From: an uncultured virus (IMG/VR IMGVR_UViG_3300042445_003239)
Lineage: Duplodnaviria; Heunggongvirae; Uroviricota; Caudoviricetes
DNA: 20,000 bases
Reading direction: 5' to 3' (one strand)
IMG/VR virus record: IMGVR_UViG_3300042445_003239
Under the pieces are notes generated by a model, which made no database searches, was not told where the DNA came from, and was given only the letters and a program-made list of their open reading frames with translations. The first letter of the stretch is position 1; every line of letters starts with the position of its first letter. The position numbers and the translations under genes were made by a program. Of this stretch, positions 6,399-19,942 are shown piece by piece.

Positions 6399-7096
6399 AG
6401 ATAGCTCGCAAATGTTTCAAGCACACTCCTGTTAAGCTAGATTATGACGATCTTGATGCAGTCACTGGAAAAACTGGACGCCAATATGTTACACCAGACG
6501 GACGTCGTTATCCTAGCATTACAACAGTATTAAGTGTACTTAGCAAGGATGGTATACGTGAATGGCGCGCACGTGTAGGCGAAGAAGAAGCAAATCGTGT
6601 TATGCGGCATGCTGCAACACGTGGTACTGCAATGCATACCATTGCAGAGCGTTATCTTAATAATGAAGAGCACTATTTTGATCCTCAAGAAATGCCTCAC
6701 GTGAAGGGTATGTTTGGCGCAATACAAACTATCATTGACGCAAACATTGATGAAGTTGTGCTACAAGAATGTCCTCTTTATAGCAATCATCTTGGCGTTG
6801 CAGGTCGTGTGGATCTTGTTGCAAAATTTAATGGTAAACATAGTATTGTTGACTTTAAGACAAGCTCTCGTGTAAAGACACGTGATCATATACAGAGCTA
6901 TTTCATGCAGGCTGCAGCATATGCAATCATGTTTGAAGAACGCACTGGTATACCTGTGCCACAACTAGTAATACTTATGGCCGTTGAAAATTCAACAGAG
7001 CCTCTCGTTTTTGTTGAGAAGAGAGACACCTGGGTTCCTGGGTTGATAGATACAATAAATGAATACAATAAAAGTAAACTATTCGGACATGCATAA
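6395..7096 (+). CDS. PD-(D/E)XK exonuclease (Cas4/RecB/lambda-exo-like)
   Basis: YPSITTVL, RGT-MH, E-PL, AGRVD, IVDFKTS, Q-AAYA; start moved to ATG 6395. Confidence 0.9.
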   Translation: MKIARKCFKHTPVKLDYDDLDAVTGKTGRQYVTPDGRRYPSITTVLSVLSKDGIREWRARVGEEEANRVMRHAATRGTAMHTIAERYLNNEEHYFDPQEMPHVKGMFGAIQTIIDANIDEVVLQECPLYSNHLGVAGRVDLVAKFNGKHSIVDFKTSSRVKTRDHIQSYFMQAAAYAIMFEERTGIPVPQLVILMAVENSTEPLVFVEKRDTWVPGLIDTINEYNKSKLFGHA

Positions 7097-7742
7097 AAAT
7101 AATAAAAATAAAAATAACGCCGAACTATTCGGCAAACTATTCAAACCTGACAATACGCATTCATATGCAAATGACTATGGAGCAGTAAAGGAATATTACC
7201 TTAGTGATACTATTGGTGACCCATCAGAATATGTTGATTGGTTTCATGATATACGTAATAGCCGCCCAACTGATGTAATTAAACTTCACATTAATTGCCC
7301 AGGCGGTAACATCTTTACAACCATTCAATTCTTACAAGCACTATCTGAAACGGAAGCGCATATCATTGCAAGTGTTGAAGGAGCATGCATGAGCGCAGCA
7401 ACTCTTATCTTCCTTATGGCAGATGAATATATGATTACTGATCATAGTGTATTCTTGTTTCACAACTATAGCTCACAAACAATGGGCAAAGGTGGCGAGA
7501 TGTATAGCTGCTTAATTCACGAGCGTGGATGGAGTGAACGTCTCTTTAAGGATATGTATACGGACTTCTTGAGTGAAGCTGAAATTAAAGATATGATTGA
7601 AGACCGTGACATTTGGATGACTGCAGCCGAAGTAATGACACGTCTTGAGGCACGCACTGCAGCACGTGAGGCTGCAGAAGCTGCCTCAGCGGCACCACAG
7701 CCTACTCCTAAGACTGCCAAAAAATCTAAGAAAGACTCATAA
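7089..7742 (+). CDS. clpP: ClpP-like serine protease
   Basis: INCPGG, G-CMSAATLI (catalytic Ser), FLFHN (His), RDIWMTA; start moved to ATG 7089. Confidence 0.85.
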   Translation: MHKNNKNKNNAELFGKLFKPDNTHSYANDYGAVKEYYLSDTIGDPSEYVDWFHDIRNSRPTDVIKLHINCPGGNIFTTIQFLQALSETEAHIIASVEGACMSAATLIFLMADEYMITDHSVFLFHNYSSQTMGKGGEMYSCLIHERGWSERLFKDMYTDFLSEAEIKDMIEDRDIWMTAAEVMTRLEARTAAREAAEAASAAPQPTPKTAKKSKKDS

Positions 7743-7760
7743 GGTCATCTCATATTTCAT

Positions 7761-7799
7761 AAAAACCGCATCTGGCCGCGTGCTTAGATGCGGTTTTTT
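7761..7799 (+). terminator. intrinsic terminator, potentially bidirectional
   Basis: AAAAACCGCATCT (7761-7773) pairs with AGATGCGGTTTTT (7786-7798); U-run follows. Confidence 0.85.
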
Positions 7800-7830
7800 G
7801 CGTCTTTTACACCATATACAATATAGGAAT

Positions 7831-7896
7831 ATGCATTTTTTTGCATAAAGTTATTTACATTGCGCAAAAAATAGTGTATAATAATCTCGTAACGAA
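7831..7896 (+). promoter_or_regulatory. sigma70-like early promoter at the start of the RNA locus
   Basis: TTTACA 7854-7859, 17-nt spacer, TATAAT 7877-7882; near-identical to the promoter at 19045-19110. Confidence 0.8.
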
Positions 7897-7954
7897 CGGC
7901 AACGGTAAATAAATCGAAGCTGTTCCGATCAAGAAAAAAGTTGAAAAAAAGTTA

Positions 7955-8002
7955 TTTACTTTCATAAAAAAGTATATATAATATCTCAACAATATATAAA
8001 TA
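7955..8002 (+). promoter_or_regulatory. second sigma70-like promoter plus late promoter for the RNA locus
   Basis: TTTACT 7955-7960, 16-nt spacer, TATAAT 7977-7982; TATAAATA 7995-8002. Confidence 0.65.
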
Positions 8003-8132
8003 GTAATTCAAGGTTCATGACGAGGGAGTACCTGAAACGCCCAAGCGAGCACAAATAGGTGTCATCATAAACGAGGTTTTTATGAGTAGTCAATAATTTT
8101 ACTCGTTTGCATATATCGTATAATATGCACGC

Positions 8133-8175
8133 CATCAGGGTGTCGGTCGCCTGATGTAAAAGAAAAGACCGAACA
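8133..8175 (+). ncRNA. H-type pseudoknot RNA, copy 1
   Basis: S1 CATCAGG/CCTGATG; S2 TCGGTC/GACCGA; A-rich loop TAAAAGAAAA; TATAAT at 8119-8124 just upstream. Confidence 0.7.
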
Positions 8176-8241
8176 TTTTCAACAGTATGGGTAGTCCCAT
8201 CGGAGCATGACTGTGATACCGTTACAGTTAAGATTTTCAAT

Positions 8242-8316
8242 CGCGGGGTAGAGTAGAGGTAACTCAACGGTCTCATAAGCCGTGCACGTGGGTTCGAATC
8301 CCACCCGCCGCAACCA
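8242..8316 (+). tRNA. trnfM: tRNA-fMet(CAT), atypical
   Basis: C1:A72 mismatch, CTCATAA loop, TTCGAAT T-loop, CCA; one extra G in the acceptor 3' strand. Confidence 0.8.
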
Positions 8317-8428
8317 ATTTAATCTCAATATTCATATTGAGAGAATACCAACAGCATGCCAGTGTATCGTGCGTTGATAGTGGCTTACAAACCCATGTTG
8401 CAGTAGAAGGTTCTGCGTACACTCCCAT

Positions 8429-8456
8429 TTCAACTCCCCCGTGGCAGTACTAATTT
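8429..8456 (+). repeat. orphan copy of the 3' end of tRNA-Glu
   Basis: TTCAACTCCCCCGTGGCAGTACTAATTT vs TTCAACTCCCCGTGGCAGTACCAATTT at 8870-8896. Confidence 0.75.
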
Positions 8457-8508
8457 CGTTACTATTGTAACTGTGGTTAACGCTGCAGCTATTACGAATG
8501 CAATGATT

Positions 8509-8551
8509 ATTCAGAATTTCGGTGATCTGAATCCAAAGAAAACACCGTACA
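8509..8551 (+). ncRNA. H-type pseudoknot RNA, copy 2
   Basis: S1 ATTCAGA/TCTGAAT; S2 CGGTG/CACCG; loop CCAAAGAAAA; same geometry as copy 1. Confidence 0.7.
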
Positions 8552-8562
8552 ATTTTTCAATC

Positions 8563-8641
8563 CTCCGTGTACGCAAACTGGCAAAGCGACTGCCTTCAAG
8601 GGGCGGTGATATTGTGAGTTCGACTCTCACCTAGGAGACCA
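8563..8641 (+). tRNA. trnL: tRNA-Leu(CAA), short variable region, two acceptor mismatches
   Basis: CTGCC-TTCAAGG-GGCGG anticodon arm; GTGAG-TTCGACT-CTCAC T-arm; ACCA. Confidence 0.7.
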
Positions 8642-8667
8642 ATTTTGAGAGCTGCAACTCTCGTTAA

Positions 8668-8807
8668 GTGAACATCGAGACTCTGAGAAGAGAGGCTTGC
8701 AGGCCTTGAGTCAAAGATGGCAATTATTGTGTAATGGCTTGCGCGCCCGTCGTGAAAACGGGAGGGACGGTTCGATTCCGTATTTTGCTTCGCTTGATGT
8801 TCATCTA
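8668..8807 (+). ncRNA. structured RNA with a nested degenerate tRNA-like domain
   Basis: Outer stem GTGAACATCGAG/CTTGATGTTCAT; inner CCCGT-CGTGAAA-ACGGG arm and ACGG-TTCGATT-CCGT T-arm. Confidence 0.55.
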
Positions 8808-8817
8808 ATTTTCCAAC

Positions 8818-8892
8818 GCTGCCATCGTCTATCGGTTAGGACAAATGGTTTTCAACCATTAGAGCGGGGTTCAACTCCCCGTGGCAGTACCA
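8818..8892 (+). tRNA. trnE: tRNA-Glu(TTC)
   Basis: GCTGCCA/TGGCAGT acceptor, AATGG-TTTTCAA-CCATT, CCA. Confidence 0.93.
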
Positions 8893-8902
8893 ATTTTCAA
8901 AA

Positions 8903-8991
8903 GTACGTGAGGCTACTGTTGGTTGTGTGGCGGCAGACTGTAACCCTGCTCATCAGAAACATCGTTGGTTCGATTCCAACCGCGTACACCA
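8903..8991 (+). tRNA. trnY: tRNA-Tyr(GTA)
   Basis: GTACGTG/CGCGTAC acceptor, CTGTAAC loop, long variable region, ACCA. Confidence 0.85.
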
Positions 8992-8997
8992 TTTTAT

Positions 8998-9073
8998 TCC
9001 GAGGTTAGCATATGTAGTAATGTCCTGCCTTGTGACGGCAGCGAATATGGTGCAAGTCCATGACCGCGGACCA
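8998..9073 (+). tRNA. trnH: tRNA-His(GTG) with U-1:A73
   Basis: CTGCC-TTGTGAC-GGCAG; T-loop TGCAAGT; ACCA. Confidence 0.8.
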
Positions 9074-9075
9074 TT

Positions 9076-9172
9076 TTTGAGCAGCGAGAACTCGGACTAA
9101 GTAAAAGGAGGTTCAACTCCTCCATTCTCTGGCTAGTCACTATCAGGATGACAACCTGACTGCTCAAATCCA
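9076..9172 (+). ncRNA. rearranged tRNA-like RNA
   Basis: 9-bp terminal stem plus TCCA; T-arm GGAGG-TTCAACT-CCTCC lies 5' of an anticodon-like hairpin TCAGG-ATGACAA-CCTGA. Confidence 0.6.
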
Positions 9173-9183
9173 CTTTCTTTAAT

Positions 9184-9260
9184 GCCTCCTTAGCTCAATT
9201 GGCAGTAGCAGCTCATTTGTAATGAGCAGGTTATCCGTTCAAGTCGGATAGGAGGCTCCA
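9184..9260 (+). tRNA. trnT: tRNA-Thr(TGT)
   Basis: GCCTCCT/AGGAGGC, GCTCA-TTTGTAA-TGAGC, TCCA. Confidence 0.93.
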
Positions 9261-9265
9261 ATTTC

Positions 9266-9430
9266 AATTATGATACTATTCGGTGAGTTAGGTGCATATG
9301 TGTATGCATACAGGCTTGAAATTCCGTGCTGAAGATAATGTCAGTGTATCATAATTAAAGATCGCTACGATCTTCAGTAGCTAGCTTCAGTCCTAAGTGA
9401 GTCGTAGGCCGCAATGCTATGGACATACCA
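9266..9430 (+). ncRNA. putative structured RNA(s)
   Basis: 11-bp stem AATTATGATAC/GTATCATAATT, several internal hairpins, ends ACCA before the spacer. Confidence 0.45.
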
Positions 9431-9439
9431 ATTTTCAAC

Positions 9440-9515
9440 TCCCGAGTAGCTCAATGGTAGATGCGCTGAGCTGTTAACTCAGATGTTGCACGTTCGAGTC
9501 GTGCCTCGGGAGCCA
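9440..9515 (+). tRNA. trnN: tRNA-Asn(GTT)
   Basis: TCCCGAG/CTCGGGA, CTGAG-CTGTTAA-CTCAG, GCCA. Confidence 0.95.
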
Positions 9516-9524
9516 TTTTCAAAA

Positions 9525-9598
9525 GCGCTATAAGTGTTACGGTAGCACGTGATCCTTCCAAGTTCGAGGCGTGGGTTCGACTCCCACATGGCGTACCA
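9525..9598 (+). tRNA. trnG: tRNA-Gly(TCC)
   Basis: GCGCTAT/ATGGCGT, CTTCCAA loop with a weak anticodon stem, A73 instead of the bacterial U73. Confidence 0.8.
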
Positions 9599-9602
9599 AT
9601 TT

Positions 9603-9766
9603 TGACACAGACGGTCTAGCTGATGTAATTTACGAGACCATAAGAGAGGGTGACTGCGAGTGCGGATTTACGGAGTAAGTCTTTTAGACCGAAACAAAAC
9701 AATATCTCGACAAGACCGGATACTTGAACAAATTTCTGCCTCTCAAACTTCAGCGTGTGTCATCCA
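9603..9766 (+). ncRNA. putative multiply pseudoknotted RNA with an acceptor-like end
   Basis: TGACACA/TGTGTCA terminal stem followed by TCCA; four crossing complementary pairs inside. Confidence 0.5.
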
Positions 9767-9770
9767 ATTT

Positions 9771-9847
9771 ACTAGACTTCGTCTAAGCGTTAAGGACCTC
9801 ACGACAGTACGTGAGAAGTGTAGGCTTCAATCTACAGTCTAGTTCTA
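9771..9847 (+). ncRNA. tRNA-shaped cloverleaf with non-canonical loops
   Basis: ACTAGAC/GTCTAGT, GTCT/GGAC, CTCACG/CGTGAG and TGTAG/CTACA all pair; no canonical anticodon loop or T-loop; ends TCTA. Confidence 0.6.
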
Positions 9848-9866
9848 ATTTACCTAAACGGGCTCA

Positions 9867-9950
9867 TGAAACATAGGGACGGGCTCTTCCACCAGCGTGA
9901 TGGCTGAAGTCTTCGGACGAAGAGTATGTATATCTTGCAGAAGTGTTTCA
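9867..9950 (+). ncRNA. putative three-way-junction RNA with a cUUCGg tetraloop
   Basis: TGAAACAT/GTGTTTCA, GCTCTTC/GAAGAGT, CAGC/GCTG, GTC-TTCG-GAC. Confidence 0.5.
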
Positions 9951-9963
9951 ACTTAATTTTTAT

Positions 9964-10041
9964 CAGAGGGTGGTGGAGCGGTCTAACACACCTAGTTTGG
10001 AACTAGGAACAACGCAGGTTCAAATCCTGCCTCTCTGACCA
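9964..10041 (+). tRNA. trnP: tRNA-Pro(TGG)
   Basis: CAGAGGG/CTCTCTG, CCTAG-TTTGGAA-CTAGG, ACCA. Confidence 0.92.
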
Positions 10042-10049
10042 TTTTCAAT

Positions 10050-10128
10050 GGTTGTGTGAATTTCGACTTGGTAAGAAGTAGATTTCATAAGTCTAAGTAT
10101 ATAGGTTCAAATCCTATCACAACCACCA
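10050..10128 (+). tRNA. tRNA with CAT anticodon (Met or Ile2), irregular D-arm
   Basis: GGTTGTG/CACAACC, TAGAT-TTCATAA-GTCTA, ATAGG-TTCAAAT-CCTAT, ACCA. Confidence 0.8.
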
Positions 10129-10137
10129 AACTTCAAA

Positions 10138-10210
10138 GGGGATGTAGCTCAATTGGTAGAGCGCTTGCCTTGCACGCAGGATGTTGCAGATTCGAGTTCT
10201 GTCATCTCCA
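10138..10210 (+). tRNA. trnA: tRNA-Ala(TGC), CCA not encoded
   Basis: GGGGATG/CATCTCC with G3:U70, CTTGCAC loop. Confidence 0.93.
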
Positions 10211-10220
10211 CTTTTTTAAT

Positions 10221-10297
10221 ACGACTATAGCTCAGATGGTCAGAGCACAGCTTTGATAAAGCTGGGGTCGAAGGTTCAAATCCTTCTAGTCGTACCA
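10221..10297 (+). tRNA. trnI: tRNA-Ile(GAT)
   Basis: ACGACTA/TAGTCGT, CAGCT-TTGATAA-AGCTG, ACCA. Confidence 0.95.
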
Positions 10298-10301
10298 TAA
10301 C

Positions 10302-10376
10302 GGACGTTAAGCTTTAATAGTGAAGCACATGGCTTTTAACCATGAGAACTGGGAGCATTACCCAGAACGTCTACCA
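10302..10376 (+). tRNA. trnK: tRNA-Lys(TTT), variant T-loop
   Basis: GGACGTT/AACGTCT, CATGG-CTTTTAA-CCATG, T-loop AGCATTA, ACCA. Confidence 0.9.
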
Positions 10377-10383
10377 ACTTTCT

Positions 10384-10458
10384 CCACACTTAGCTGAGAT
10401 GGATTAGCACAAGACTGAAAATCTTGAGAGGACCGATCGTTACGGTCAGTGTGGACCA
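10384..10458 (+). tRNA. trnF: tRNA-Phe(GAA), variant T-loop
   Basis: CCACACT/AGTGTGG, CAAGA-CTGAAAA-TCTTG, T-loop ATCGTTA, ACCA. Confidence 0.9.
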
Positions 10459-10462
10459 TAAT

Positions 10463-10542
10463 GCTCCTGTAGCTCAGTCGTGGTCAGAGCACCCGCCTTA
10501 TAAGTGGGAGGTCATGGGTTCAATCCCCCATCAGGAGTACCA
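10463..10542 (+). tRNA. trnI: tRNA-Ile(TAT)
   Basis: GCTCCTG/CAGGAGT, CCCGC-CTTATAA-GTGGG, 8-nt T-loop, ACCA. Confidence 0.85.
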
Positions 10543-10552
10543 ATTTTCAAAT

Positions 10553-10629
10553 ACGCCTATAGCTTAGCGTTCCAAAGCAATCCACTCATAATGGATAGAT
10601 CCTCGGTTAGAATCCGAGTGGGCGTACCA
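10553..10629 (+). tRNA. tRNA with CAT anticodon (Met or Ile2)
   Basis: ACGCCTA/TGGGCGT, ATCCA-CTCATAA-TGGAT, T-loop TTAGAAT, ACCA. Confidence 0.85.
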
Positions 10630-10650
10630 TTTTATTATAAATATGATTAT

Positions 10651-10726
10651 GCGGAGGCATGTCCCAAGGCTGGCGAACGAGACTCCAAATCTTGTTGGGT
10701 GAGTTCGATTCTCACTCTCCGTGCCA
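10651..10726 (+). tRNA. trnW: tRNA-Trp(CCA)
   Basis: GCGGAGG/TCTCCGT, CGAGA-CTCCAAA-TCTTG, G73 then CCA; TATAAATA at 10636-10643 upstream. Confidence 0.88.
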
Positions 10727-10760
10727 AAAATCAATTATTATAAATAAACATATAACTATT

Positions 10761-11453
10761 ATGAAAGACGGTCTAATTAACATCGCAAAGAATTTCTTGC
10801 TATCTGAAGCAGCAGTGAAAGAATATACACTCAATGACGCTTCAACACTCTCTGACTTTGAGAGTGAAACTGAAATCATTACGCATCTTGTGAAGGATCC
10901 AAAGATTAAAGCTGCTACTGGCGGTTCAAAAAATCTTTACTTTGACGGTTCCGAACTTGTATATAAAGACAAGACTGTAAAGGGTGGATTAATTGATAAA
11001 GATGGTTTTAGTGCTAAGGTTAAACTTGGTGATCTTAAGAAAGCTATTTTGGCAATGCCTGGGCTACACGAAGCAAGTGGCCAATCTGATCCAAATATTA
11101 CAGTTTGGACTAAAAAGGGACCACACAATTATGATAGCTTTTTAGCTGCAAATGAAGATCGTATTGGCGAGCCAATGATTGACGGCGGTCTTAAAGCAAA
11201 TAATAAAGATGCTGAAGCAGTAAACGGTCAGCCAGTTAATGACATGATCTATTGTGGTTCTGGTTGCGTAGTTTATAAAGATGGTGCAAAGAGATTTGTC
11301 AAGTTACCATCTGGTCTCATAAACACAGGTGATGGCAGTACGCCTTGGTCAAAATATTCTTCATTTAGTTCTGAAGGTGTGCTAATTAAAGCAGATGATA
11401 ACAATAAATTCAAAGATATTGCTAAAGCAGTACAAGTTGCCGCAAAATTTTAA
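10761..11453 (+). CDS. hypothetical late protein, putative internal head protein
   Basis: Start reassigned to ATG 10761 because the longer frame overlaps tRNA-Trp; TATAAATA at 10739-10746; LLSE/A and LHE/A gp21-like sites. Confidence 0.75.
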   Translation: MKDGLINIAKNFLLSEAAVKEYTLNDASTLSDFESETEIITHLVKDPKIKAATGGSKNLYFDGSELVYKDKTVKGGLIDKDGFSAKVKLGDLKKAILAMPGLHEASGQSDPNITVWTKKGPHNYDSFLAANEDRIGEPMIDGGLKANNKDAEAVNGQPVNDMIYCGSGCVVYKDGAKRFVKLPSGLINTGDGSTPWSKYSSFSSEGVLIKADDNNKFKDIAKAVQVAAKF

Positions 11454-11478
11454 ATCTTAACAAGAATAACTTTAACGG

Positions 11479-11508
11479 AAAGAGGCTGCATCTTGCAGTC
11501 TTTTTTTT
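11479..11508 (+). terminator. intrinsic terminator
   Basis: AGAGGCTGCA-TCT-TGCAGTCTTT hairpin with a T8 tail. Confidence 0.85.
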
Positions 11509-11510
11509 AT

Positions 11511-11569
11511 GCACTCTTAGCTCAGCTGGATCAGAGCACACGGCTACGAACCGTGAGGTCCGGGGTTCG
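11511..11569 (+). pseudogene. trnR: 5' part of split tRNA-Arg(ACG)
   Basis: GCACTCT acceptor 5' strand, D-arm, CACGG-CTACGAA-CCGTG and CGGGG-TTCG, then an abrupt break. Confidence 0.88.
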
Positions 11570-11597
11570 TAAAGTTCACATTTGTATAAATACATTT

Positions 11598-12371
11598 ATG
11601 AACTACCAACGTATTTACGATAATCTAATTTCATATCGACAAAATAATCCGGCAACTGGATATACTGAAAAGCACCATATCTTGATGAAATCAATGGGCG
11701 GATCTGATGATACTTCTAATCTAGTAGTTTTAACTGGAAGAGAACATTGGATCGCCCACATCCTTCTTTATAAGATTCATAAGAATAGTCAAACAATTCA
11801 TGCATGCCATATGATGGCGATGCGATGTGAAGAGCGCAGTATATCCTATATTAAGAATTCTCGTCTGTATGAAGAAATTCGAAAACATCACTCTAAATTG
11901 GCATCAAAACGTATGAAAATTTCTCAAAGTGGTGAGTGCAATTCACAATATGGAACTCGTTGGATGTGCAATATTGAATTACAAGAAAATAAAAAAATAT
12001 TAAAAGAAGACAAAATACCAGAAGGATGGATTTTAGGAAGAAATAAGTGGAAAAATATAGAAATAATTTTTACATGTGTTATATGTAATTGTACTTTTTT
12101 AAAGCTTAAATGTTCTAAGACATATAAAACGTGCTCATCTGAATGTCTTCATTTATTAAAAATAAAAAATAGAAAAGGTAAAACACTAGATAAAAAAACT
12201 AGAAAAAAACTTTCTGATTCGGCTAAAATTCGAATGCGTAAACAAATTGATTCTGGTAATATGAAATTTTCAAGTGTTGATACTGTTTGGATTAACAATG
12301 GAACAAAATCTGCACGTATTGAAAAAAATGAATTACCTCCTGATGGATGGAAATTTGGAAGACATAAATAA
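11598..12371 (+). CDS. HNH homing endonuclease (MobE-like) with zinc finger and NUMOD-like DNA-binding modules
   Basis: MNYQRIYD...TEKHHI--K-MGGSDD-SNLV-LT-REH-IAH; CVIC...CSSEC; WINNG/GW-LGR repeats; TATAAATA at 11585-11592; start reassigned to ATG 11598. Confidence 0.92.
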   Translation: MNYQRIYDNLISYRQNNPATGYTEKHHILMKSMGGSDDTSNLVVLTGREHWIAHILLYKIHKNSQTIHACHMMAMRCEERSISYIKNSRLYEEIRKHHSKLASKRMKISQSGECNSQYGTRWMCNIELQENKKILKEDKIPEGWILGRNKWKNIEIIFTCVICNCTFLKLKCSKTYKTCSSECLHLLKIKNRKGKTLDKKTRKKLSDSAKIRMRKQIDSGNMKFSSVDTVWINNGTKSARIEKNELPPDGWKFGRHK

Positions 12372-12376
12372 AAAAA

Positions 12377-12451
12377 GGCCTGTTGGTCCAATGGATAAGA
12401 CGAGAGTTTACGAAACTCCAAATTGAGGTTCGATTCCTCAACAGGCCACCA
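12377..12451 (+). tRNA. trnR: tRNA-Arg(ACG), cassette-borne replacement copy
   Basis: GGCCTGT/ACAGGCC, D-loop GGA (A20), GAGT-TTACGAA-ACTC, TGAGG-TTCGATT-CCTCA, ACCA. Confidence 0.9.
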
Positions 12452-12505
12452 TTTTGTATTATATAATTTAAAATAAATGTACATAATATATAATAAACTG
12501 ATGAA

Positions 12506-12519
12506 TTGAGAGTGCACCA
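12506..12519 (+). pseudogene. trnR: 3' remnant of split tRNA-Arg(ACG)
   Basis: AGAGTGC (12509-12515) is the exact complement of the GCACTCT that opens the split tRNA, followed by ACCA and the usual TTTT spacer. Confidence 0.82.
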
Positions 12520-12523
12520 TTTT

Positions 12524-12607
12524 TGCGAGAGGGTGTCTAAACCGCTTGGCCCGTCGGTTGAACTCGCATGTCAATATCTCCAAAGTGTTGATGTTAACGG
12601 GCCTTCA
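12524..12607 (+). ncRNA. pseudoknotted RNA displaying a Trp-type anticodon loop
   Basis: TGCGAG/CTCGCA, AACCG/CGGTT, crossing GGCCCGT/ACGGGCC; hairpin closing CTCCAAA. Confidence 0.55.
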
Positions 12608-12619
12608 AATTTTTATAAT

Positions 12620-12693
12620 GGGGGATTAGTTCAAAAGTAGAACGATTGCTTTACACGCAATATACGAGGGAGCGTTACCTTCATCCCTTACCA
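12620..12693 (+). tRNA. trnV: tRNA-Val(TAC), variant T-loop
   Basis: GGGGGAT/ATCCCTT, ATTGC-TTTACAC-GCAAT, T-loop AGCGTTA, ACCA. Confidence 0.9.
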
Positions 12694-12696
12694 TAC

Positions 12697-12786
12697 GGAG
12701 ATATGACAGAGTGGTAATGTAGCTGTTTGCTAAACAGTAGTCAACCTTGATCGGTTGCGCAGGTTCAAATCCTGCTGTCTCCGCCA
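12697..12786 (+). tRNA. trnS: tRNA-Ser(GCT)
   Basis: GGAGATA/TGTCTCC, TTGCTAA loop, long variable arm, GCCA. Confidence 0.95.
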
Positions 12787-12791
12787 TTTTT

Positions 12792-12866
12792 GTTGCGTAA
12801 GCCAAATGGTTAGGCGCGAGATTGCAAATCTCGTCTTGGTGTGTTCGATTCACACACGCAACTCCA
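12792..12866 (+). tRNA. trnC: tRNA-Cys(GCA)
   Basis: GTTGCGT/ACGCAAC, CGAGA-TTGCAAA-TCTCG, U73 then CCA. Confidence 0.93.
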
Positions 12867-12868
12867 AT

Positions 12869-12942
12869 TGCCCATTAGCATAAAGGTAATGCACACGGCT
12901 TTGACCCGTGAGAAGTTGGTTCGATACCAGCATGGGCTACCA
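12869..12942 (+). tRNA. trnQ: tRNA-Gln(TTG)
   Basis: U1:U72 mismatch, CACGG-CTTTGAC-CCGTG, ACCA. Confidence 0.92.
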
Positions 12943-12968
12943 ATTTTTATAAATAGATAAATAACAAT

Positions 12969-13259
12969 ATGACTGAAAACTTTACAAACATTAAAAACGA
13001 TCCGCTTGTAGCCGCCGCCGCAAAAATCATAGGCAGTCAATTGCATGAAGCTGATTCACGTATAGCAAAAACACCAGCTGCAGTTAAATTACTATCTGGA
13101 ATTACAAAGCTTGACGCCAAGGAATTTGAAGATTTGTTATATGGTCTTGAATATATGACTCAATGGAATGGCCAACGCGACGGAGATGATGATTATATTG
13201 AAACTGCGCTATTTCTTAAAAAAGCAGCAGAACGTTTTTCTAAAAGACCAAATAAATAA
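12969..13259 (+). CDS. hypothetical late protein, putative internal head protein (paralogue A)
   Basis: TATAAATA at 12948-12955; leader MTENFTNIKNDPLVAAAAKII then QLHE/A. Confidence 0.8.
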   Translation: MTENFTNIKNDPLVAAAAKIIGSQLHEADSRIAKTPAAVKLLSGITKLDAKEFEDLLYGLEYMTQWNGQRDGDDDYIETALFLKKAAERFSKRPNK

Positions 13260-13267
13260 ATACAGAT

Positions 13268-13831
13268 ATGAAAGAAAACTTCACAAACATTAAAAACGAT
13301 CCGCTTATAGCTGCGGCCACAAAGATCTTAACAGGATGCACTCAATTAGATGAAACAGTTGAGCTCCAAGAAATGTCCAACACTAAAATTGCAAAAGACA
13401 TTAAGAAGGGCGACTCTTTTAAAGCAAATCTAAAAATCCCAGGAAAAGGTGTAGACATCTCAAAAGCATATACTGTTATTGCGACAGATGACGCAATGGA
13501 TTCAAAAACTCATCCTGGGAAACTGGTAAACATACGTGTAAAAGCTGGAAACTATACAACCGTAGTTCCTTTTGAAAAAAATCAGAAAGTAGATCTTGTT
13601 GAAGAAACAATTGATGAAGCTCTTAAAACTCCAACATATCCACTTGTTCGTAAAATAATGGCAGCTGCAGAAGATATAGATGAAGATGAATTGGAAGAAT
13701 TGTTTTTCACACTATCAAACTATATGATTTATGGCGGGTTTGGTGGAATGGGATTTGATGATCGTCTGCATGATGAAGTTGGAGCACATCTTTTCCGCGC
13801 GGCAAAAGTTTGGAAAAATCGAAATAATTAA
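13268..13831 (+). CDS. hypothetical late protein, putative internal head protein (paralogue B)
   Basis: Same leader MKENFTNIKNDPLIAAATKIL; several (L/I)xE sites; C-terminal helical domain resembles paralogue A. Confidence 0.8.
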   Translation: MKENFTNIKNDPLIAAATKILTGCTQLDETVELQEMSNTKIAKDIKKGDSFKANLKIPGKGVDISKAYTVIATDDAMDSKTHPGKLVNIRVKAGNYTTVVPFEKNQKVDLVEETIDEALKTPTYPLVRKIMAAAEDIDEDELEELFFTLSNYMIYGGFGGMGFDDRLHDEVGAHLFRAAKVWKNRNN

Positions 13832-13838
13832 TTTTAAT

Positions 13839-14158
13839 GGGGATGTCATGGTTTCGACATGACATGAGAGATTATATTGCAACACACGGGTGACTCCCTT
13901 CGTCAAAAAACTAAACGGCAAAAATACACTTGCTCTCGCTGCTTAAGTGAGTCGAATGACATGACTCCTATATTGTCATTCGCACGGCATAGGATAGTTG
14001 ATACCACGAACGGTATCTATTTGTACAGCATTGTGAATAACGCTGTCGTGACACAACGATAAGTGTCTAAGAGTCTCGTCTGAATAAATGAGAATAAGTT
14101 GTAGATTGTATAATCGCACACGTCATGGACACGGGTTCAACTCCCGTCGTCTCCACCA
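13839..14158 (+). ncRNA. ssrA: tmRNA; tag (A)GKNTLALAA at 13917-13946
   Basis: GGGGATG/CGTCTCC-ACCA with G3:U70, GGTTTCGAC 5' motif, GGAC-ACGGG-TTCAACT-CCCGT 3' end, tag ORF ending LAA-stop. Confidence 0.95.
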
Positions 14159-14160
14159 AT

Positions 14161-14237
14161 GCACAGGTGACGGAATTGGTTTACGTACTTGCCTTAGAAG
14201 CAAGGTTTTGTGGGTTCGAGTCCCACCCTGTGTACCA
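14161..14237 (+). tRNA. trnL: tRNA-Leu(TAG), short variable loop
   Basis: GCACAGG/CCTGTGT, CTTGC-CTTAGAA-GCAAG, 5-nt variable loop, ACCA. Confidence 0.9.
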
Positions 14238-14246
14238 AAATTTTAT

Positions 14247-14335
14247 GGAAGTAGTCCGGCTGGTCGAGGACACTGTCTTGAAAACAGCTGGGGCCTATAA
14301 AGCCCTCGGGGGTTCGAGTCCCTCTGCTTCCGCCA
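14247..14335 (+). tRNA. trnS: tRNA-Ser(TGA)
   Basis: GGAAGTA/TGCTTCC, CTTGAAA loop, GGGC/GCCC variable arm, GCCA. Confidence 0.9.
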
Positions 14336-14351
14336 TTTAAGTTGCATCTAT

Positions 14352-14359
14352 TATAAATA
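14352..14359 (+). promoter_or_regulatory. T4-type late promoter
   Basis: TATAAATA upstream of the 14396 ORF. Confidence 0.7.
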
Positions 14360-14395
14360 GATTATTACGAGTAAAGTTATTGGCTACAAAATCAC

Positions 14396-15496
14396 ATGAA
14401 ATCATTTAAACAATATATTCTTGAAGGCGGAAATTTAATGTTGGGCGACCAAGGTGCAGATCGCATTGACCTAACAAAGATTAACCGTGATAGTGTAACG
14501 GTGCAAATTGACCGCACACTAGATGCAGTTAACAAAGCATACAAGAAAAAGTATGGACTACCATTATGGAGTGGCGAACTCTTTAAGAGCAAGGAGTTTC
14601 TTAGCGGCAGCGCATTCCACTTTTTTAACCGCGCAATTCCTACAGCCGAATTTACTAAGTATAAGAATACAGTAGGCGATGTAGATACTCAGGTTGATAA
14701 GATACAAGATGAAAACCTTGGCGAGTTTCTTAAAGCCATAACTGGTAAAACTTTTGGTGATGCTTCACTCATTGGATTTAAGAAAAGCGCGGGGCAATAT
14801 ATTACGCTTTGGGCTTTCCCAGAGTTTGGCATTAACATTCAAGTAGATATGGAACTTGTTGACTTTGCTTATGGCAAACCAACAGCATGGAGCATGTTCT
14901 CGCATTCATCTGCATGGAATGATATTACAGCAGGTATTAAAGGTGTGTTTCATAAATACATTATGAGAGCAGCATCTGCAAAAACACTGCGTGATATTAT
15001 CATTCTTAAAGGTAAGAAAGAAACACCTACGAAAATTAAAGCATCTGATCTTGCATTTAGTGTACAGCATGGATTGCGCACCAAAATAGCACCAGTCCTA
15101 GATGGCGTAGGTAAACACATGATGCAGGATGGATTATATGTCTATCGTGAAATACCAACAAGTGAATCAACATATATTACGGATCTTAAAGTTATCTTTA
15201 AAGTACTCTTTGAGCGTACGCCATCAGATGCGGATATGAAGATGATGGATTCGTTTATTGGCGCAGCGGAACTCATTAAGAAATATATTGCACCAGCAGA
15301 ACAAACACGATTAATCAATGCATTTGCAAATATATTATTTGAAAAAGGCGCACAAGGATTATATCGTGGTGATGCTGAACGAGATAATGCCGAAAAGATG
15401 GCAGCATTCTTAAAACTTACCGAAATCATTGGAGCACAATATGACCGTGCTGCTATTGATGATATGCGTGCAGAATATTACAAAGGATACAAATAA
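14396..15496 (+). CDS. pol-beta-superfamily nucleotidyltransferase with a capsid-targeting-like leader
   Basis: hGS (LSGSA), GDVD, third Asp in IQVDM; N-terminus MKSFKQYILE. Confidence 0.75.
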   Translation: MKSFKQYILEGGNLMLGDQGADRIDLTKINRDSVTVQIDRTLDAVNKAYKKKYGLPLWSGELFKSKEFLSGSAFHFFNRAIPTAEFTKYKNTVGDVDTQVDKIQDENLGEFLKAITGKTFGDASLIGFKKSAGQYITLWAFPEFGINIQVDMELVDFAYGKPTAWSMFSHSSAWNDITAGIKGVFHKYIMRAASAKTLRDIIILKGKKETPTKIKASDLAFSVQHGLRTKIAPVLDGVGKHMMQDGLYVYREIPTSESTYITDLKVIFKVLFERTPSDADMKMMDSFIGAAELIKKYIAPAEQTRLINAFANILFEKGAQGLYRGDAERDNAEKMAAFLKLTEIIGAQYDRAAIDDMRAEYYKGYK

Positions 15497-19862: not shown

Positions 19863-19942
19863 GCCCTGATACCGGAACTGCCTTCTAAGCAGTAGTACCG
19901 TAATCGGAGTCAATGGAGGTTCGAGTCCTCTTCAGGGCGCCA
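19863..19942 (+). tRNA. trnR: non-canonical tRNA-Arg(TCT) lacking a D-arm, with an enlarged variable region
   Basis: GCCCTGA/TCAGGGC-GCCA, 7-nt connector, ACTGC-CTTCTAA-GCAGT, 21-nt variable region, GGAGG-TTCGAGT-CCTCT. Confidence 0.75.

Follow-up and report, generated by a model that had tools for sequence, protein, structure and literature searches.

A Phage tRNA Array Interleaved With Conserved RNA Families and Lineage-Specific tRNA-Shaped Units

Organization of the Array

The DNA analyzed here (the window, a single stretch of 20,000 nt) belongs to an uncultured freshwater phage and carries a tRNA array on the + strand at positions 8243-12942, with 22 tRNA genes and 11-12 non-tRNA units. 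According to ARAGORN and Rfam annotation, the array tRNAs serve 19 of the 20 amino acids, strain L094 adds Asp, and a tmRNA is also encoded. The non-tRNA units fall into three kinds: conserved RNA families, lineage-specific tRNA-shaped units, and scars. An earlier note on this DNA had counted about ten structured non-tRNA RNAs among the tRNAs; some of the pieces are tRNA fragments, real tRNAs or coding DNA. In particular, three stretches left empty by ARAGORN (10055-10122, 10302-10373 and 12620-12690) are real tRNAs by Rfam and the 1650-nt stretch 10727-12376 is protein-coding; none of the non-tRNA units matches the RF00005 or tmRNA models at E 1.

The array is preceded by two tandem sigma-70-like promoters (7854-7982, + strand), promoter 1 being TTTACA-17-TATAAT at 7854-7882 and promoter 2 TTTACT-16-TATAAT at 7955-7982 (11/12 and 10/12 consensus matches, respectively), with a terminator-like hairpin at 7761-7798 ahead of both. 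Promoter-like sites overall are no more numerous in this region than in shuffles, and therefore the case for these promoters rests on their position. The segment 7952-8075 shows 77% identity in relatives L090 and L091. The leader of the array transcript (7989-8134, + strand) has no significant fold (z -0.43 vs shuffles), an RNA-library contig covers 7908-8075, and no + strand terminator-like sites occur within the array. A spacer unit at 9852-9955 (+ strand), for which no specific fold is supported (z -0.24) and a search for relatives found none, lies within RNA contig 9764-9961.

The gaps between tRNAs had been described as lacking credible ORFs, which was borne out: the only + strand ORFs of at least 40 aa in them are those running through tRNA genes, and strain variants show 2-nt and 4-nt indels as well as whole-unit deletions there. 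The ATTTT punctuation is common to tRNAs and gap units, as had been proposed. The motif CCAWTTT occurs 24 times vs 11.3 +/- 3.3 in shuffles (24 being reached in 0/200), 17 of the 24 copies are on the + strand between 8314 and 12946, and (A)(A)TTT, read by eye, follows 15/22 tRNA ends and 11/14 non-tRNA unit ends. The tRNA-like tails quoted in the note are present as UCCA at 9172 and 9766 and as UCUA at 8807 and 9847, whereas the ACCA at 9430 is not such an end, having no terminal stem before it and not being retained in relatives of module B (see below). When a strict finder was applied, which requires a closing stem of 7 bp (one G-U allowed), a tail of 4-6 nt ending in CYA and then TTT, four non-tRNA units were detected in the gaps vs 0.13 +/- 0.36 expected from 300 in-place dinucleotide shuffles, none of which reached four.

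That the gaps can fold holds only in part. Of the 17 segments analyzed, just two folded clearly better than shuffles, namely 8668-8808 (z -3.59) and 9078-9172 (z -3.16); z values of -1.8 to -2.3 were obtained for five others, and ten, modules A, B and C among them, fold no better than shuffles. The structures of the three modules rest on covariation instead.

Conserved RNA Families

Modules A, B and C, a pseudoknot element and a two-hairpin element are the units conserved in relatives; these families are absent from Rfam 15 and from 50,697 GenBank phage records. Module A (9268-9353, + strand) forms a three-way junction whose strands (CGGUGAGUU and AGGCUUGARAUUCCGUG) are invariant while the hairpins vary; its motif was found at 22 IMG/VR loci representing 16 distinct sequences. 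Paired cells amount to 94.7% vs 85.9% in shuffles, both sides change in 10 of 21 pairs and the covariation score is reached by 0/500 shuffles; no Rfam match was found. Module B (9358-9431, + strand), compared in 14 sequences (window plus 10 loci), consists of a variable hairpin, the conserved UAGCUAG..CCAGUCCUG, inner hairpins and CUAUGGAC. Its fold is partly resolved (z 0.03 vs shuffles); the hairpin sequences vary while pairing is kept, and the closing pair changes from G-C to A-U in L054.

Module C (12524-12609, + strand) is a pseudoknotted RNA supported by covariation among 68 matching IMG/VR loci (51 distinct sequences), likewise with no Rfam match. It comprises hairpin 1 with a 12-nt loop (GCUUGGCCCGUC), hairpin 2 with the loop CUCCAAA, and the 3' strand ACGGGCC; pairing of this strand with loop 1 forms a pseudoknot and yields a 7-bp acceptor-like helix followed by the tail UUCA and AAUUUUU. 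In the stem around the loop the inner four pairs are 100% paired, with GC, CG, UA and AU all occurring; overall, 11/18 pairs change on both sides (observed score reached by 0/500 shuffles), and the pseudoknot helix occurs in two variants with four doubly compensated pairs. The G-U pairs in modules A and C indicate that the fold belongs to the + strand RNA. The tail of module C is GCCA in 24/47 members and UUCA in 14/47, a true CCA being missing in 23/47. The window copy has UUCA, not GCCA, which together with those 14 members weakens readings that need a true CCA end. Module C is mostly found away from tRNAs (no tRNA within 400 nt at 38/49 loci). In the window it is covered by RNA contig 12535-12687.

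The pseudoknot element occurs twice on the + strand, at 8140-8182 and, immediately 5' of tRNA-Leu(CAA), at 8510-8562 (z -1.79 for each). In the copy at 8140-8182 the hairpin loop, TCGGTC, can pair with GACCGA past an A-rich linker, followed by ATTTTCAA. Three distinct copies, a small sample, were compared (two in the window and one in relative L089): the stems differ yet stay paired, and one loop/tail pair is swapped from C-G to G-C. The second window copy shares 91% identity with L089rc 9217-9267 and is reached at 8517-8555 by the loose end of an RNA contig from run X8. The two-hairpin element (8184-8241, + strand, z -1.85), just 5' of tRNA-Met, shows 87% identity in L090/L091 and has a paralogue in L094 whose second hairpin differs by two compensatory pair changes. 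The pseudoknot and two-hairpin elements each rest on 3-4 sequences.

Lineage-Specific tRNA-Shaped Units

Five units known only from this phage (8361-8427, 8668-8807, 9078-9172, 9603-9766 and 9771-9847, all on the + strand) are tRNA-shaped, with a closing stem of 7-8 bp, or 12 or more in the case of 8668-8807, and an NCCA or NCUA tail. Compared with 161 distinct tRNAs, all except 9078-9172 show no significant similarity (z -0.3 to 1.8), and no anticodon-loop mimic is kept among them, the arm loops of 9771-9847 having 6 nt and a loop of 8668-8807 changing from 7 to 9 nt between strains.

The 67-nt unit 8361-8427, detected by the strict finder, has a 7-bp closing stem and a CCCA tail ahead of TTT; searches found no relatives and its tRNA similarity is nil (z -0.3). 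The 140-nt unit 8668-8807 is closed by a stem of at least 12 bp and ends in UCUA followed by AUUUU. None of 200 shuffles folds as well, and it holds a T-arm-like hairpin, ACGG-UUCGAUU-CCGU. In comparison with L094, pairs are kept at 4/4 substitutions and the two indels are located in loops or bulges. A model search found no homologue in 787 kb of relatives, and none of the listed RNA contig pieces covers this unit. ARAGORN calls a tRNA-Ser(tga) at 8719-8791 inside it, but Rfam shows no tRNA match there and ARAGORN makes no tRNA call in the L094 copy.

The 95-nt unit 9078-9172 is cloverleaf-like, with an 8-bp closing stem, a short D-like arm, a long arm (GGAGG-UUCAACU-CCUCC end), a T-like arm matching a tRNA at z 3.4, and a tail ending in UCCA; an equally good fold appeared in 1/200 shuffles. 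It is identical in L094, the sole other strain, and thus yields no covariation evidence. An RNA contig covers 9007-9179 with one difference, and no homologue was found by model search in 782 kb of relatives.

The 164-nt unit 9603-9766, also detected by the strict finder, has the 7-bp stem UGACACA/UGUGUCA and the tail UCCA followed by AUUU, around an interior that folds no better than shuffles (z -0.27). It is missing from a strain variant that occurs in three RNA runs, where 9600 is joined to 9795. By sequence search alone it has no relatives beyond this strain cluster; relatives carry units of the same design, unrelated in sequence. Lastly, the 77-nt unit 9771-9847 (z -1.99) is cloverleaf-shaped, with an 8-bp closing stem, three arms and a UCUA tail; neither Rfam nor ARAGORN calls it a tRNA and a model search of relatives found no homologue. 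A variant in RNA runs X1, X2 and X8 has two closing-stem pairs changed on both sides and the tail changed to GCCA. The closing stems of the five units are under selection, a conclusion that for 8668-8807, 9078-9172, 9603-9766 and 9771-9847 rests on very few substitutions.

Scars and Cassette Turnover

Two features are scars of recombination and homing-endonuclease insertion. One is a tRNA-Glu 3' half remnant at 8428-8463 (+ strand) in the gap 8316-8562 (z 8.9 vs 161 distinct tRNAs), with 93% identity over 8429-8456 to the tRNA-Glu 3' end of relative L092. The other is a tRNA-Arg(ACG) split in its T-loop (11511-12519, + strand), with the 5' part at 11511-11569 and the 3' end at 12507-12519, of which 12517-12519 is the CCA; a weak Rfam tRNA match covers 11511-11578 (25.1 bits). 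The 937-nt insertion contains an HNH homing endonuclease gene (~11600-12371; PHROG homing endonuclease match, E 2e-42), a second tRNA-Arg(ACG) at 12377-12451 and, in addition, an A/T-rich stretch in which promoter-like sites occur. In an RNA contig from run X8, only six other letters separate 11569 from 12507.

Cassette turnover is evident between strains. L094, which is 97.7% identical over 7.6 kb, has other units in place of gap 1 and tRNA-Leu, an 818-nt insertion with four tRNAs and a module A, and a tRNA-Asp at the position of the window's module A; variants in the RNA runs lack either 9601-9794 or the HNH cassette.

Presence in RNA Libraries

Contigs from four metatranscriptome runs (four studies) extend over 7855-11650, 12462-13000 and the tmRNA, while the coding stretches 7042-7854, 11920-12461, 13275-13816 and 14359-14600 have a contig depth of 0. 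Such contigs show neither RNA ends, strand nor abundance, and DNA can occur in RNA libraries; they do not demonstrate discrete stable products.

Proposed Processing and Role of the Units

The units with their punctuation, the covariation, the cassette turnover and the presence in RNA libraries are probably best explained by a phage tRNA operon assembled from cassettes, from which the non-tRNA units are processed out as discrete small RNAs. The location of the units on the tRNA strand, the shared punctuation and the RNA contigs spanning neighboring tRNAs make a co-transcribed and co-processed set the natural reading, as the earlier note had it. Two strong promoters would produce one long transcript in which 22 tRNAs and 11-12 non-tRNA RNAs are parted by short A/U-rich spacers (AUUUU, often AUUUUCAA). 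Host tRNA-maturation enzymes may then separate the units, an RNase E-type enzyme cutting within the AUUUU spacer right behind each CCA and RNase P at the base of each acceptor-like stem. This would free the non-tRNA units as discrete, presumably stable small RNAs, by analogy with RNAC and RNAD of the phage T4 tRNA cluster, and the freed units might act in trans.

Modules A to C, together with the pseudoknot element and 8184-8241, are true RNA genes. Many uncultured phages preserve both their sequences and their pairings, and these genes move between arrays as cassettes; module C most likely acts through binding by a putative factor that reads tRNA acceptor ends. The five lineage-specific units are tRNA-shaped or acceptor-framed and unable to decode, and their closing stems most likely make them clean, self-contained processing units. 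The earlier observation largely holds, although not in every part, and its interpretation as tRNA mimics is partly right: acceptor-like closing helices and NCCA, NCUA or NYCA tails are present in the five units and module C, but the best conserved ones (modules A and B, the pseudoknot element and 8184-8241) are not tRNA-like and some "tRNA-like ends" are merely pieces of real tRNA genes.

Slightly short of an even chance is given to the units, above all the lineage-specific ones, being function-free structured filler, self-closed so that neighboring tRNA folding is spared, clipped by tRNA-processing enzymes and discarded. Among relatives, long acceptor-framed units have the frame (7-bp stem, UCCA/ACCA, TTT) in common but enclose unrelated interiors; moreover, 9603-9766 is dispensable in the strain variant and its interior folds no better than shuffles, and ~780 kb of related arrays contain no homologue of 8668-8807, 9078-9172 or 9771-9847. 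Filler leaves modules A, B and C unexplained, however, as their unpaired junction and loop sequences are near-invariant across dozens of phages and module C mostly stands apart from tRNAs. Decay of tRNA genes, with the tRNA-shaped units as pseudogenes being lost and their stems as unselected leftovers, would fit the two clear scars, the T-arm of 9078-9172 and the degenerate tRNA read by ARAGORN within 8668-8807; it is rather unlikely because the other four units are unlike all 161 tRNAs, compensatory changes preserve the closing stems, and perfect closing stems of 7 bp combined with the right tail are 30 times commoner than in shuffles.

It is doubtful that the leader, the two pseudoknot elements and 8184-8241 are instead cis-acting, attenuator- or riboswitch-like regulators of downstream tRNA transcription or processing that are not released. 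All three pseudoknot copies are upstream of tRNAs, two directly and 8140-8182 separated by nothing but 8184-8241 from an initiator-like tRNA-Met, and the H-type pseudoknot built by the hairpin, the A-rich linker and the pairing of the loop is a shape that small riboswitches use; against this, no Rfam riboswitch or leader family is detected at E up to 1, no + strand terminator-like site lies downstream and just three distinct copies are known. Quite unlikely is a role of the tRNA-shaped units and module C as putative decoys that absorb tRNA-attacking host defense enzymes (anticodon nucleases, acceptor-end enzymes) and protect the real tRNAs, as the earlier note suggested. Acceptor-like helices with NCCA-type tails agree with it, a tRNA set for nearly all amino acids fits a phage replacing host tRNAs, and phage tRNAs are reported to counter PARIS, a tRNA-cleaving system (PMC11455837). 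On the other hand, there is no conserved anticodon-loop mimic, several units, the window's module C included, end in UCUA or UUCA, and no defense or counter-defense gene is linked.

Comparison With Known Systems

The closest known case is that of phage T4 RNAC and RNAD (species 1/species 2 RNAs, rnaC/rnaD), of 139 and 119 nt, which as here are non-tRNA RNAs on the tRNA strand within a tRNA cluster; they are annotated as small stable RNAs beside tRNA-Arg and adjoin a homing endonuclease gene, as in this array, and their roles are described as unknown (PMC3014915, PMC9697503). Like 8668-8807, RNAC folds far better than shuffles (z -4.57) and carries a T-arm-like hairpin close to the 3' end. The two cases resemble each other neither in sequence nor by model search (model R3 gave no match in the T4 region), and the array contains about a dozen units vs two in T4, several of them, unlike those of T4, in families across many phages, with family C mostly outside tRNA arrays. 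The 8495 "DNAVirus" candidate structured RNA motifs from IMG/VR, some tRNA-like, described in PMC10690425 share with the units their data source and their nature as short covarying intergenic RNAs of uncultured phages; no motif of module A, B or C occurs in the six supplementary files searched, a search covering files other than the alignment and model supplements.

With canonical tRNA (RF00005) and the tRNA-like domain of tmRNA the units share the 7-bp closing stem, the unpaired 3' tail, 7-nt T-loop-like loops and the position in a tRNA operon, but arm and loop sizes are wrong for decoding and no unit reaches E 1 against either model. The pair G3-U70 is the identity mark of tmRNA and tRNA-Ala; module C has C3-G70 instead. 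In the 3' tRNA-like structures of plant RNA viruses (turnip yellow mosaic virus type) the acceptor helix is formed via a pseudoknot. Although module C differs from these in being a small RNA gene of DNA phages, with 23/47 members devoid of a true CCA, it resembles them in that a pseudoknot between its 3' strand and a hairpin loop builds an acceptor-like helix that usually ends in NCCA.

Genome Context and Layout of the tRNA Array

The window belongs to a 43-kb IMG/VR virus record estimated to be 24% complete. Its genes (ribonucleotide reductase, T4-type RNase H, SegE-like GIY-YIG endonuclease, PD-(D/E)XK nuclease, ClpP-like protease and helicase) form, judging by sequence, the gene set of a large lytic phage. 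A near-identity search of cultured phages returned no match, and a distant search of cultured phages gave tRNA-sized matches only (502 records). ARAGORN predicted 23 tRNA genes and a tmRNA in the window, to which Rfam added four tRNAs (10055-10122, 10302-10373, 12620-12690 and 19863-19939). Two of the genes missed by ARAGORN depart by eye from the UUCRANY T-loop: tRNA-Lys(UUU) at 10302-10373 has AGCAUUA and a D-loop without GG, and tRNA-Val(UAC) at 12620-12690 has AGCGUUA. An unusual T-loop, AUCGAUA, was also seen by eye in tRNA-Asp(GUC) of the sister strain L094 (9328-9400).

The array extends on the + strand from tRNA-Met (8243) to tRNA-Gln (12942). Upstream of it, a terminator-like hairpin lies at 7761-7798 and strong promoter-like sites lie at 7854-7882 and 7955-7982; no terminator-like site was found within it on the + strand. 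Seven gaps exceed 50 nt: 7983-8242, 8316-8562, 8642-8817, 9074-9183, 9261-9439, 9599-9963 and 12452-12619. The absence of credible ORFs asserted by the earlier note holds for these seven, but not for 10727-12376, which codes for two proteins, one unknown (230 aa) and one an HNH homing endonuclease. The ORF of the former (10761-11453), inside the array and without family match, is found in RNA-library contigs of three of four runs, unlike the other coding stretches compared. Downstream, a full-length tmRNA (13839-14158; Rfam 93.8 bits; tag GKNTLALAA) abuts tRNA-Leu(UAG) directly. Between the tRNA block and the tmRNA lie two adjacent ORFs, 12969-13259 (96 aa) and 13268-13831 (187 aa), which have their N-terminal ~20 residues in common and no Pfam or PHROG match.

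Common Ends and Transcription of the Units

The punctuation of the non-tRNA units is that of the tRNAs, as the earlier note had stated. The motif CCAWTTT is present 24 times, where 11.3 ± 3.3 copies were expected, and 17 of the 24 are on the + strand within the array. By our reading, (A)(A)TTT stands behind 15 of the 22 tRNA ends and 11 of the 14 ends of non-tRNA units. A strict unit finder, demanding a 7-bp closing stem (at most one G-U), a 4-6-nt tail ending in CYA and then TTT, recovered four non-tRNA units (ends at 8427, 8807, 9766 and 9847), compared with 0.13 ± 0.36 in 300 gap shuffles; 9078-9172 is of the same design, but has CTTT after its tail. The 7-bp acceptor-like stems are present in the units, with UCCA, CCCA, UCUA or AAUCCA as tails. 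The tRNA-like tails named in the earlier note are there, except that ACCA at 9430 is not conserved among relatives of module B (9358-9431). The CCA at 12517-12519 proved to be the orphaned 3' end of a tRNA-Arg(ACG) split by the HNH cassette. Better folding than in shuffled controls was clear only for 8668-8808 (z -3.59) and 9078-9172 (z -3.16) among 17 segments, while five had z of -1.8 to -2.3 and ten were no better than shuffles; folding energy alone is the weaker evidence.

Small shares of the region were found in 12 metatranscriptome runs, four of which, from four studies, were compared. Their contigs cover 7855-11650, 12462-13000 and the tmRNA, and pieces spanning both tRNA and non-tRNA units include 8118-8322, 9007-9179, 9305-9589, 9600-9853, 9764-9961 and 12535-12687, with depth 0 on the coding stretches 7042-7854, 11920-12461, 13275-13816 and 14359-14600. 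Most units are covered and the coding flanks are skipped, in contigs that carry no ends, strand or level, a pattern more in keeping with abundant stable RNA than with contaminating DNA. The depth table does not rank the units, and the apparent non-coverage of 8668-8807 is no finding.

RNA Families Shared with Other Phages

With the neighboring ClpP-like protein as query, 38 IMG/VR loci were retrieved: two are identical to the window, and in the other 36, where protein identity is 67-73%, the tRNA arrays are heavily rearranged. Searches of the seven gaps with nhmmer against these 36 loci gave matches only for gap 4, which holds modules A and B, and BLAST against 15 related contigs gave none for 8642-8817, 9074-9183 and 9599-9963; the recurring families were uncovered by motif scans and closer contigs (G001-G004). 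A metagenome scan with the same protein provided L094 as one informative strain; its other matches were again the relatives at ~70% identity. Conservation in relatives was found for two small elements and for modules A, B and C, which recur, whereas 8668-8807, 9078-9172 and 9771-9847 had no homologue in ~780 kb of related arrays. Rfam 15 assigned only tRNA, tmRNA and chance-level matches in window 7800-14500 (E up to 1), and only tRNA, tmRNA and one group I intron in 14 related loci with modules A, B and C (E up to 0.1). Neither modules A plus B nor a module C member gave a match in specific searches of cultured and GenBank phages.

Module A (9268-9353) was found through its invariant junction strands at 22 IMG/VR loci. 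Across the 16 distinct sequences, compensation maintains the outer stem, a variable hairpin and the third hairpin: 94.7% of cells are paired versus 85.9% in shuffles, both sides have changed in 10 of 21 pairs, the covariation score was reached by none of 500 shuffles, and pairing falls to 26-53% when partner columns are slid. In all 16, the outer stem is preceded within a few bases by ATTT(T) or ATTG. Module B follows A directly in the window and three relatives, is located elsewhere in others and forms a tandem repeat in two. Its conserved strands are UAGCUAG..CCAGUCCUG and CUAUGGAC, and its first hairpin varies in sequence with pairing kept, the closing pair changing from G-C to A-U in the relative L054. 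Membership of modules A, B and the pseudoknot element in a self-cleaving ribozyme or riboswitch class was rejected for want of an Rfam match, and CUGAAGA in the module A hairpin of the window is not conserved among relatives.

Other elements accompany these modules in related arrays. In many relatives (e.g., L051, L062 and L049) an extra motif, AAAAAGCCAUAUGAAGGUUACGGGCUUCCUUC, recurs between modules A and B; it is also found in an 818-nt insert of L094 and is absent from the window. The relative L089 carries a group I intron (9172-9356, - strand of the locus; Rfam 68.5 bits) immediately following modules A and B; on inspection by eye, it lies within the anticodon loop of a tRNA. In four relatives (L050, L093, L011 and L036) a tRNA-like gene of ~103 nt has an ordinary acceptor stem and T-arm, a ~35-nt insertion at the position of the variable arm and no ARAGORN call.

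The exact pattern of module C (12524-12609) was found in 68 IMG/VR contigs, corresponding to 51 distinct sequences of which two are apparently chance matches. The first hairpin bears a 12-nt loop, GCUUGGCCCGUC, and its inner four pairs are paired in 47 of 47 distinct rows, with GC, CG, UA, AU and GU all used; in the second the loop is almost invariant, UUCCAAA (CUCCAAA in the window). With the first loop the 3' strand ACGGGCC forms a helix (GGCCCGU/ACGGGCC); this acceptor-like helix is a pseudoknot, and the enclosing stem covaries. Because the first pattern had fixed the pseudoknot helix, a second scan was anchored on the second hairpin only, and returned GGCCUAU/AUAGGCC (3 loci) and GGUUCG/CGAACC (2 loci), which together provide four doubly compensated pairs; in both variants the helix is still followed by GCCA. 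The tails of the 47 distinct rows, at the DNA level, are GCCA in 24, UUCA in 14 including the window, GUCA in seven and other in two. Kissing between UCCAA of the hairpin loop and UUGG of the 12-nt loop was discarded, since both pseudoknot variants are without UUGG.

At 38 of 49 loci there is no tRNA within 400 nt of module C, so it is a free-standing phage RNA gene whose place in this array is incidental. It is absent from Rfam and, among 185,579 bacterial and archaeal species genomes, its pattern gave 51 loci with one real member, on a 5-kb contig; the remaining 50 lack the hairpins and are chance matches in DNA rich in G+C. The gene context is mixed. A DnaC-like helicase loader was identified upstream in one of seven proteins scanned, and the same protein was seen by eye at several further loci. 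In L129, L122, L133 and L160, a single group of small phage contigs, the module is ~30 nt downstream of this gene on the same strand; upstream genes in other groups are unrelated. An SSB-like assignment for another upstream protein was dropped, as it had no family match.

Two smaller elements are also conserved. The pseudoknot element, consisting of a hairpin, an A-rich linker and a loop-pairing tail, occurs at 8140-8182 and 8510-8562 and once in L089; two copies stand directly before a tRNA, and 8140-8182 is parted from tRNA-Met by 8184-8241 alone. The latter is a two-hairpin element that recurs in the relatives L090 and L091, and in L094 with two compensated pairs; few sequences underlie each of the two elements.

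Lineage-Specific Units

Cloverleaf-like folds are predicted for 9078-9172 and 9771-9847, and a long closed multi-arm structure with a T-arm-like hairpin for 8668-8807. They are not standard tRNAs, in agreement with the earlier note: none of 12 non-tRNA units matched RF00005 at E up to 1, and the only ARAGORN call inside a unit (Ser-tga, 8719-8791) is without Rfam support and is lost in L094. Compared with 161 distinct tRNAs, the units gave nothing beyond a T-arm-sized match, except for a fragment at about 8428-8465 whose sequence clearly marks it as a tRNA-Glu remnant. Single-sequence covariance models of 9078-9172, 9771-9847 and 8668-8807 found no member outside the strain cluster in ~780 kb of related arrays, and the only contigs that matched a pattern of 9771-9847 were the two that are identical to the window. 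Relatives contain long units with the same acceptor frame and unrelated interiors; as homologues of 9603-9766 these were rejected, as they do not align.

Within the strain cluster, a variant of 9771-9847 in three RNA runs has two closing-stem pairs changed on both sides and its tail changed to GCCA, and in 8668-8807 four of four substitutions relative to L094 keep pairs, the two indels falling in one loop and one bulge. These strain data point to selection on the putative stems of the lineage-specific units.

Cassette Turnover and the HNH Insertion

L094 is 97.7% identical to the window across 7.6 kb of flanking genes, and its array differs by whole cassettes: gap 1 and tRNA-Leu are replaced by other units, the 818-nt insert between tRNA-Glu and tRNA-Tyr brings four tRNAs, a module A and a further motif, and tRNA-Asp(GUC) sits exactly at the position of module A in the window. 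The difference in cassette order (L094 7623-7858 and 8131-8948 versus window 8316-8641 and 8893-8902) suggests recombination at shared CCA-AUUUUCAA junctions. Variants in RNA runs are without 9601-9794.

One RNA run contains a variant joining 11569 to 12507, that is, an allele without insertion; the HNH gene, the adjoining tRNA-Arg(ACG) and an A/T-rich stretch thus constitute a 937-nt insertion. Its site is the T-loop of another tRNA-Arg(ACG) (11511-12519). The tRNA-Arg(ACG) of the insertion (12377-12451) is quite different from the one it splits, and the function that the insertion destroys is thereby replaced.

Interpretation and Comparison with Known Systems

The best reading of these data is a tRNA operon built of cassettes, in which non-tRNA cassettes would be cut out by tRNA enzymes and comprise widely shared RNA genes (modules A, B, C and the two small elements), lineage-specific acceptor-framed RNAs and scars. 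In proteobacteria, tRNA maturation involves RNase E-type and RNase P cuts; on this basis, an RNase E-type enzyme would cut in AUUUU and RNase P at the acceptor-like stems. The usual annotation of a phage tRNA cluster is tRNAs with empty spacers; here about one third of the operon units are other RNAs, at least three of which (A, B and C) represent families common to dozens of uncultured phages and missing from Rfam. Strain comparisons reveal how such arrays evolve, by whole-cassette swaps at shared A/U-rich junctions and by a homing endonuclease cassette with its own replacement tRNA.

As to function, the earlier note had proposed decoys. No anticodon-loop mimic is conserved in the units, which speaks against decoys for anticodon nucleases. 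A tRNA has a 7-nt anticodon loop on a 5-bp stem, at a fixed distance from the acceptor end; 9771-9847 has a 6-nt loop on a 6-bp stem, 9078-9172 has an arm of ~50 nt, and the loop of 8668-8807 has 7 nt in the window versus 9 nt in L094. The acceptor mimics, especially module C, may act as decoys. A bolder proposal, which we regard as improbable, is that module C is the DNA-phage counterpart of the plant-virus tRNA-like structure: a free-standing RNA of ~85-125 nt that would be handled as a tRNA through its pseudoknotted acceptor arm and GCCA end (RNase P cut, repair by the CCA-adding enzyme, perhaps charging) and would occupy or mislead a host factor reading tRNA 3' ends, e.g., an acceptor-end-modifying defence toxin. 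If true, the array would be a general launch pad for a small-RNA toolkit (A, B, C and tRNA look-alikes). Module C in particular provides a defined candidate acceptor-arm mimic, accessible to synthesis and to assays with RNase P, the CCA-adding enzyme, aminoacyl-tRNA synthetases and defence enzymes that target tRNAs.

The 8495 candidate structured RNAs catalogued from IMG/VR (PMC10690425) may already include modules A-C, nameless. Module C resembles the plant-virus tRNA-like structures in that its acceptor helix is also made by a pseudoknot. The 3' end typical of those structures is NCCA; read from DNA, module C has GCCA in 24 of 47 rows and UUCA in the window. RNAC and RNAD of T4 are small stable RNAs of the T4 tRNA cluster with roles still unknown (PMC3014915, PMC9697503). 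Half a century after their discovery, families with many members and clear conserved loops are testable objects in this respect. The model of 8668-8807 has no match in the T4 region (L113), and modules A plus B matched no T4-like record. RNAC and RNAD are the closest known case; the units described here likewise lie within a phage tRNA cluster, on the strand of the tRNAs, and are not tRNAs.
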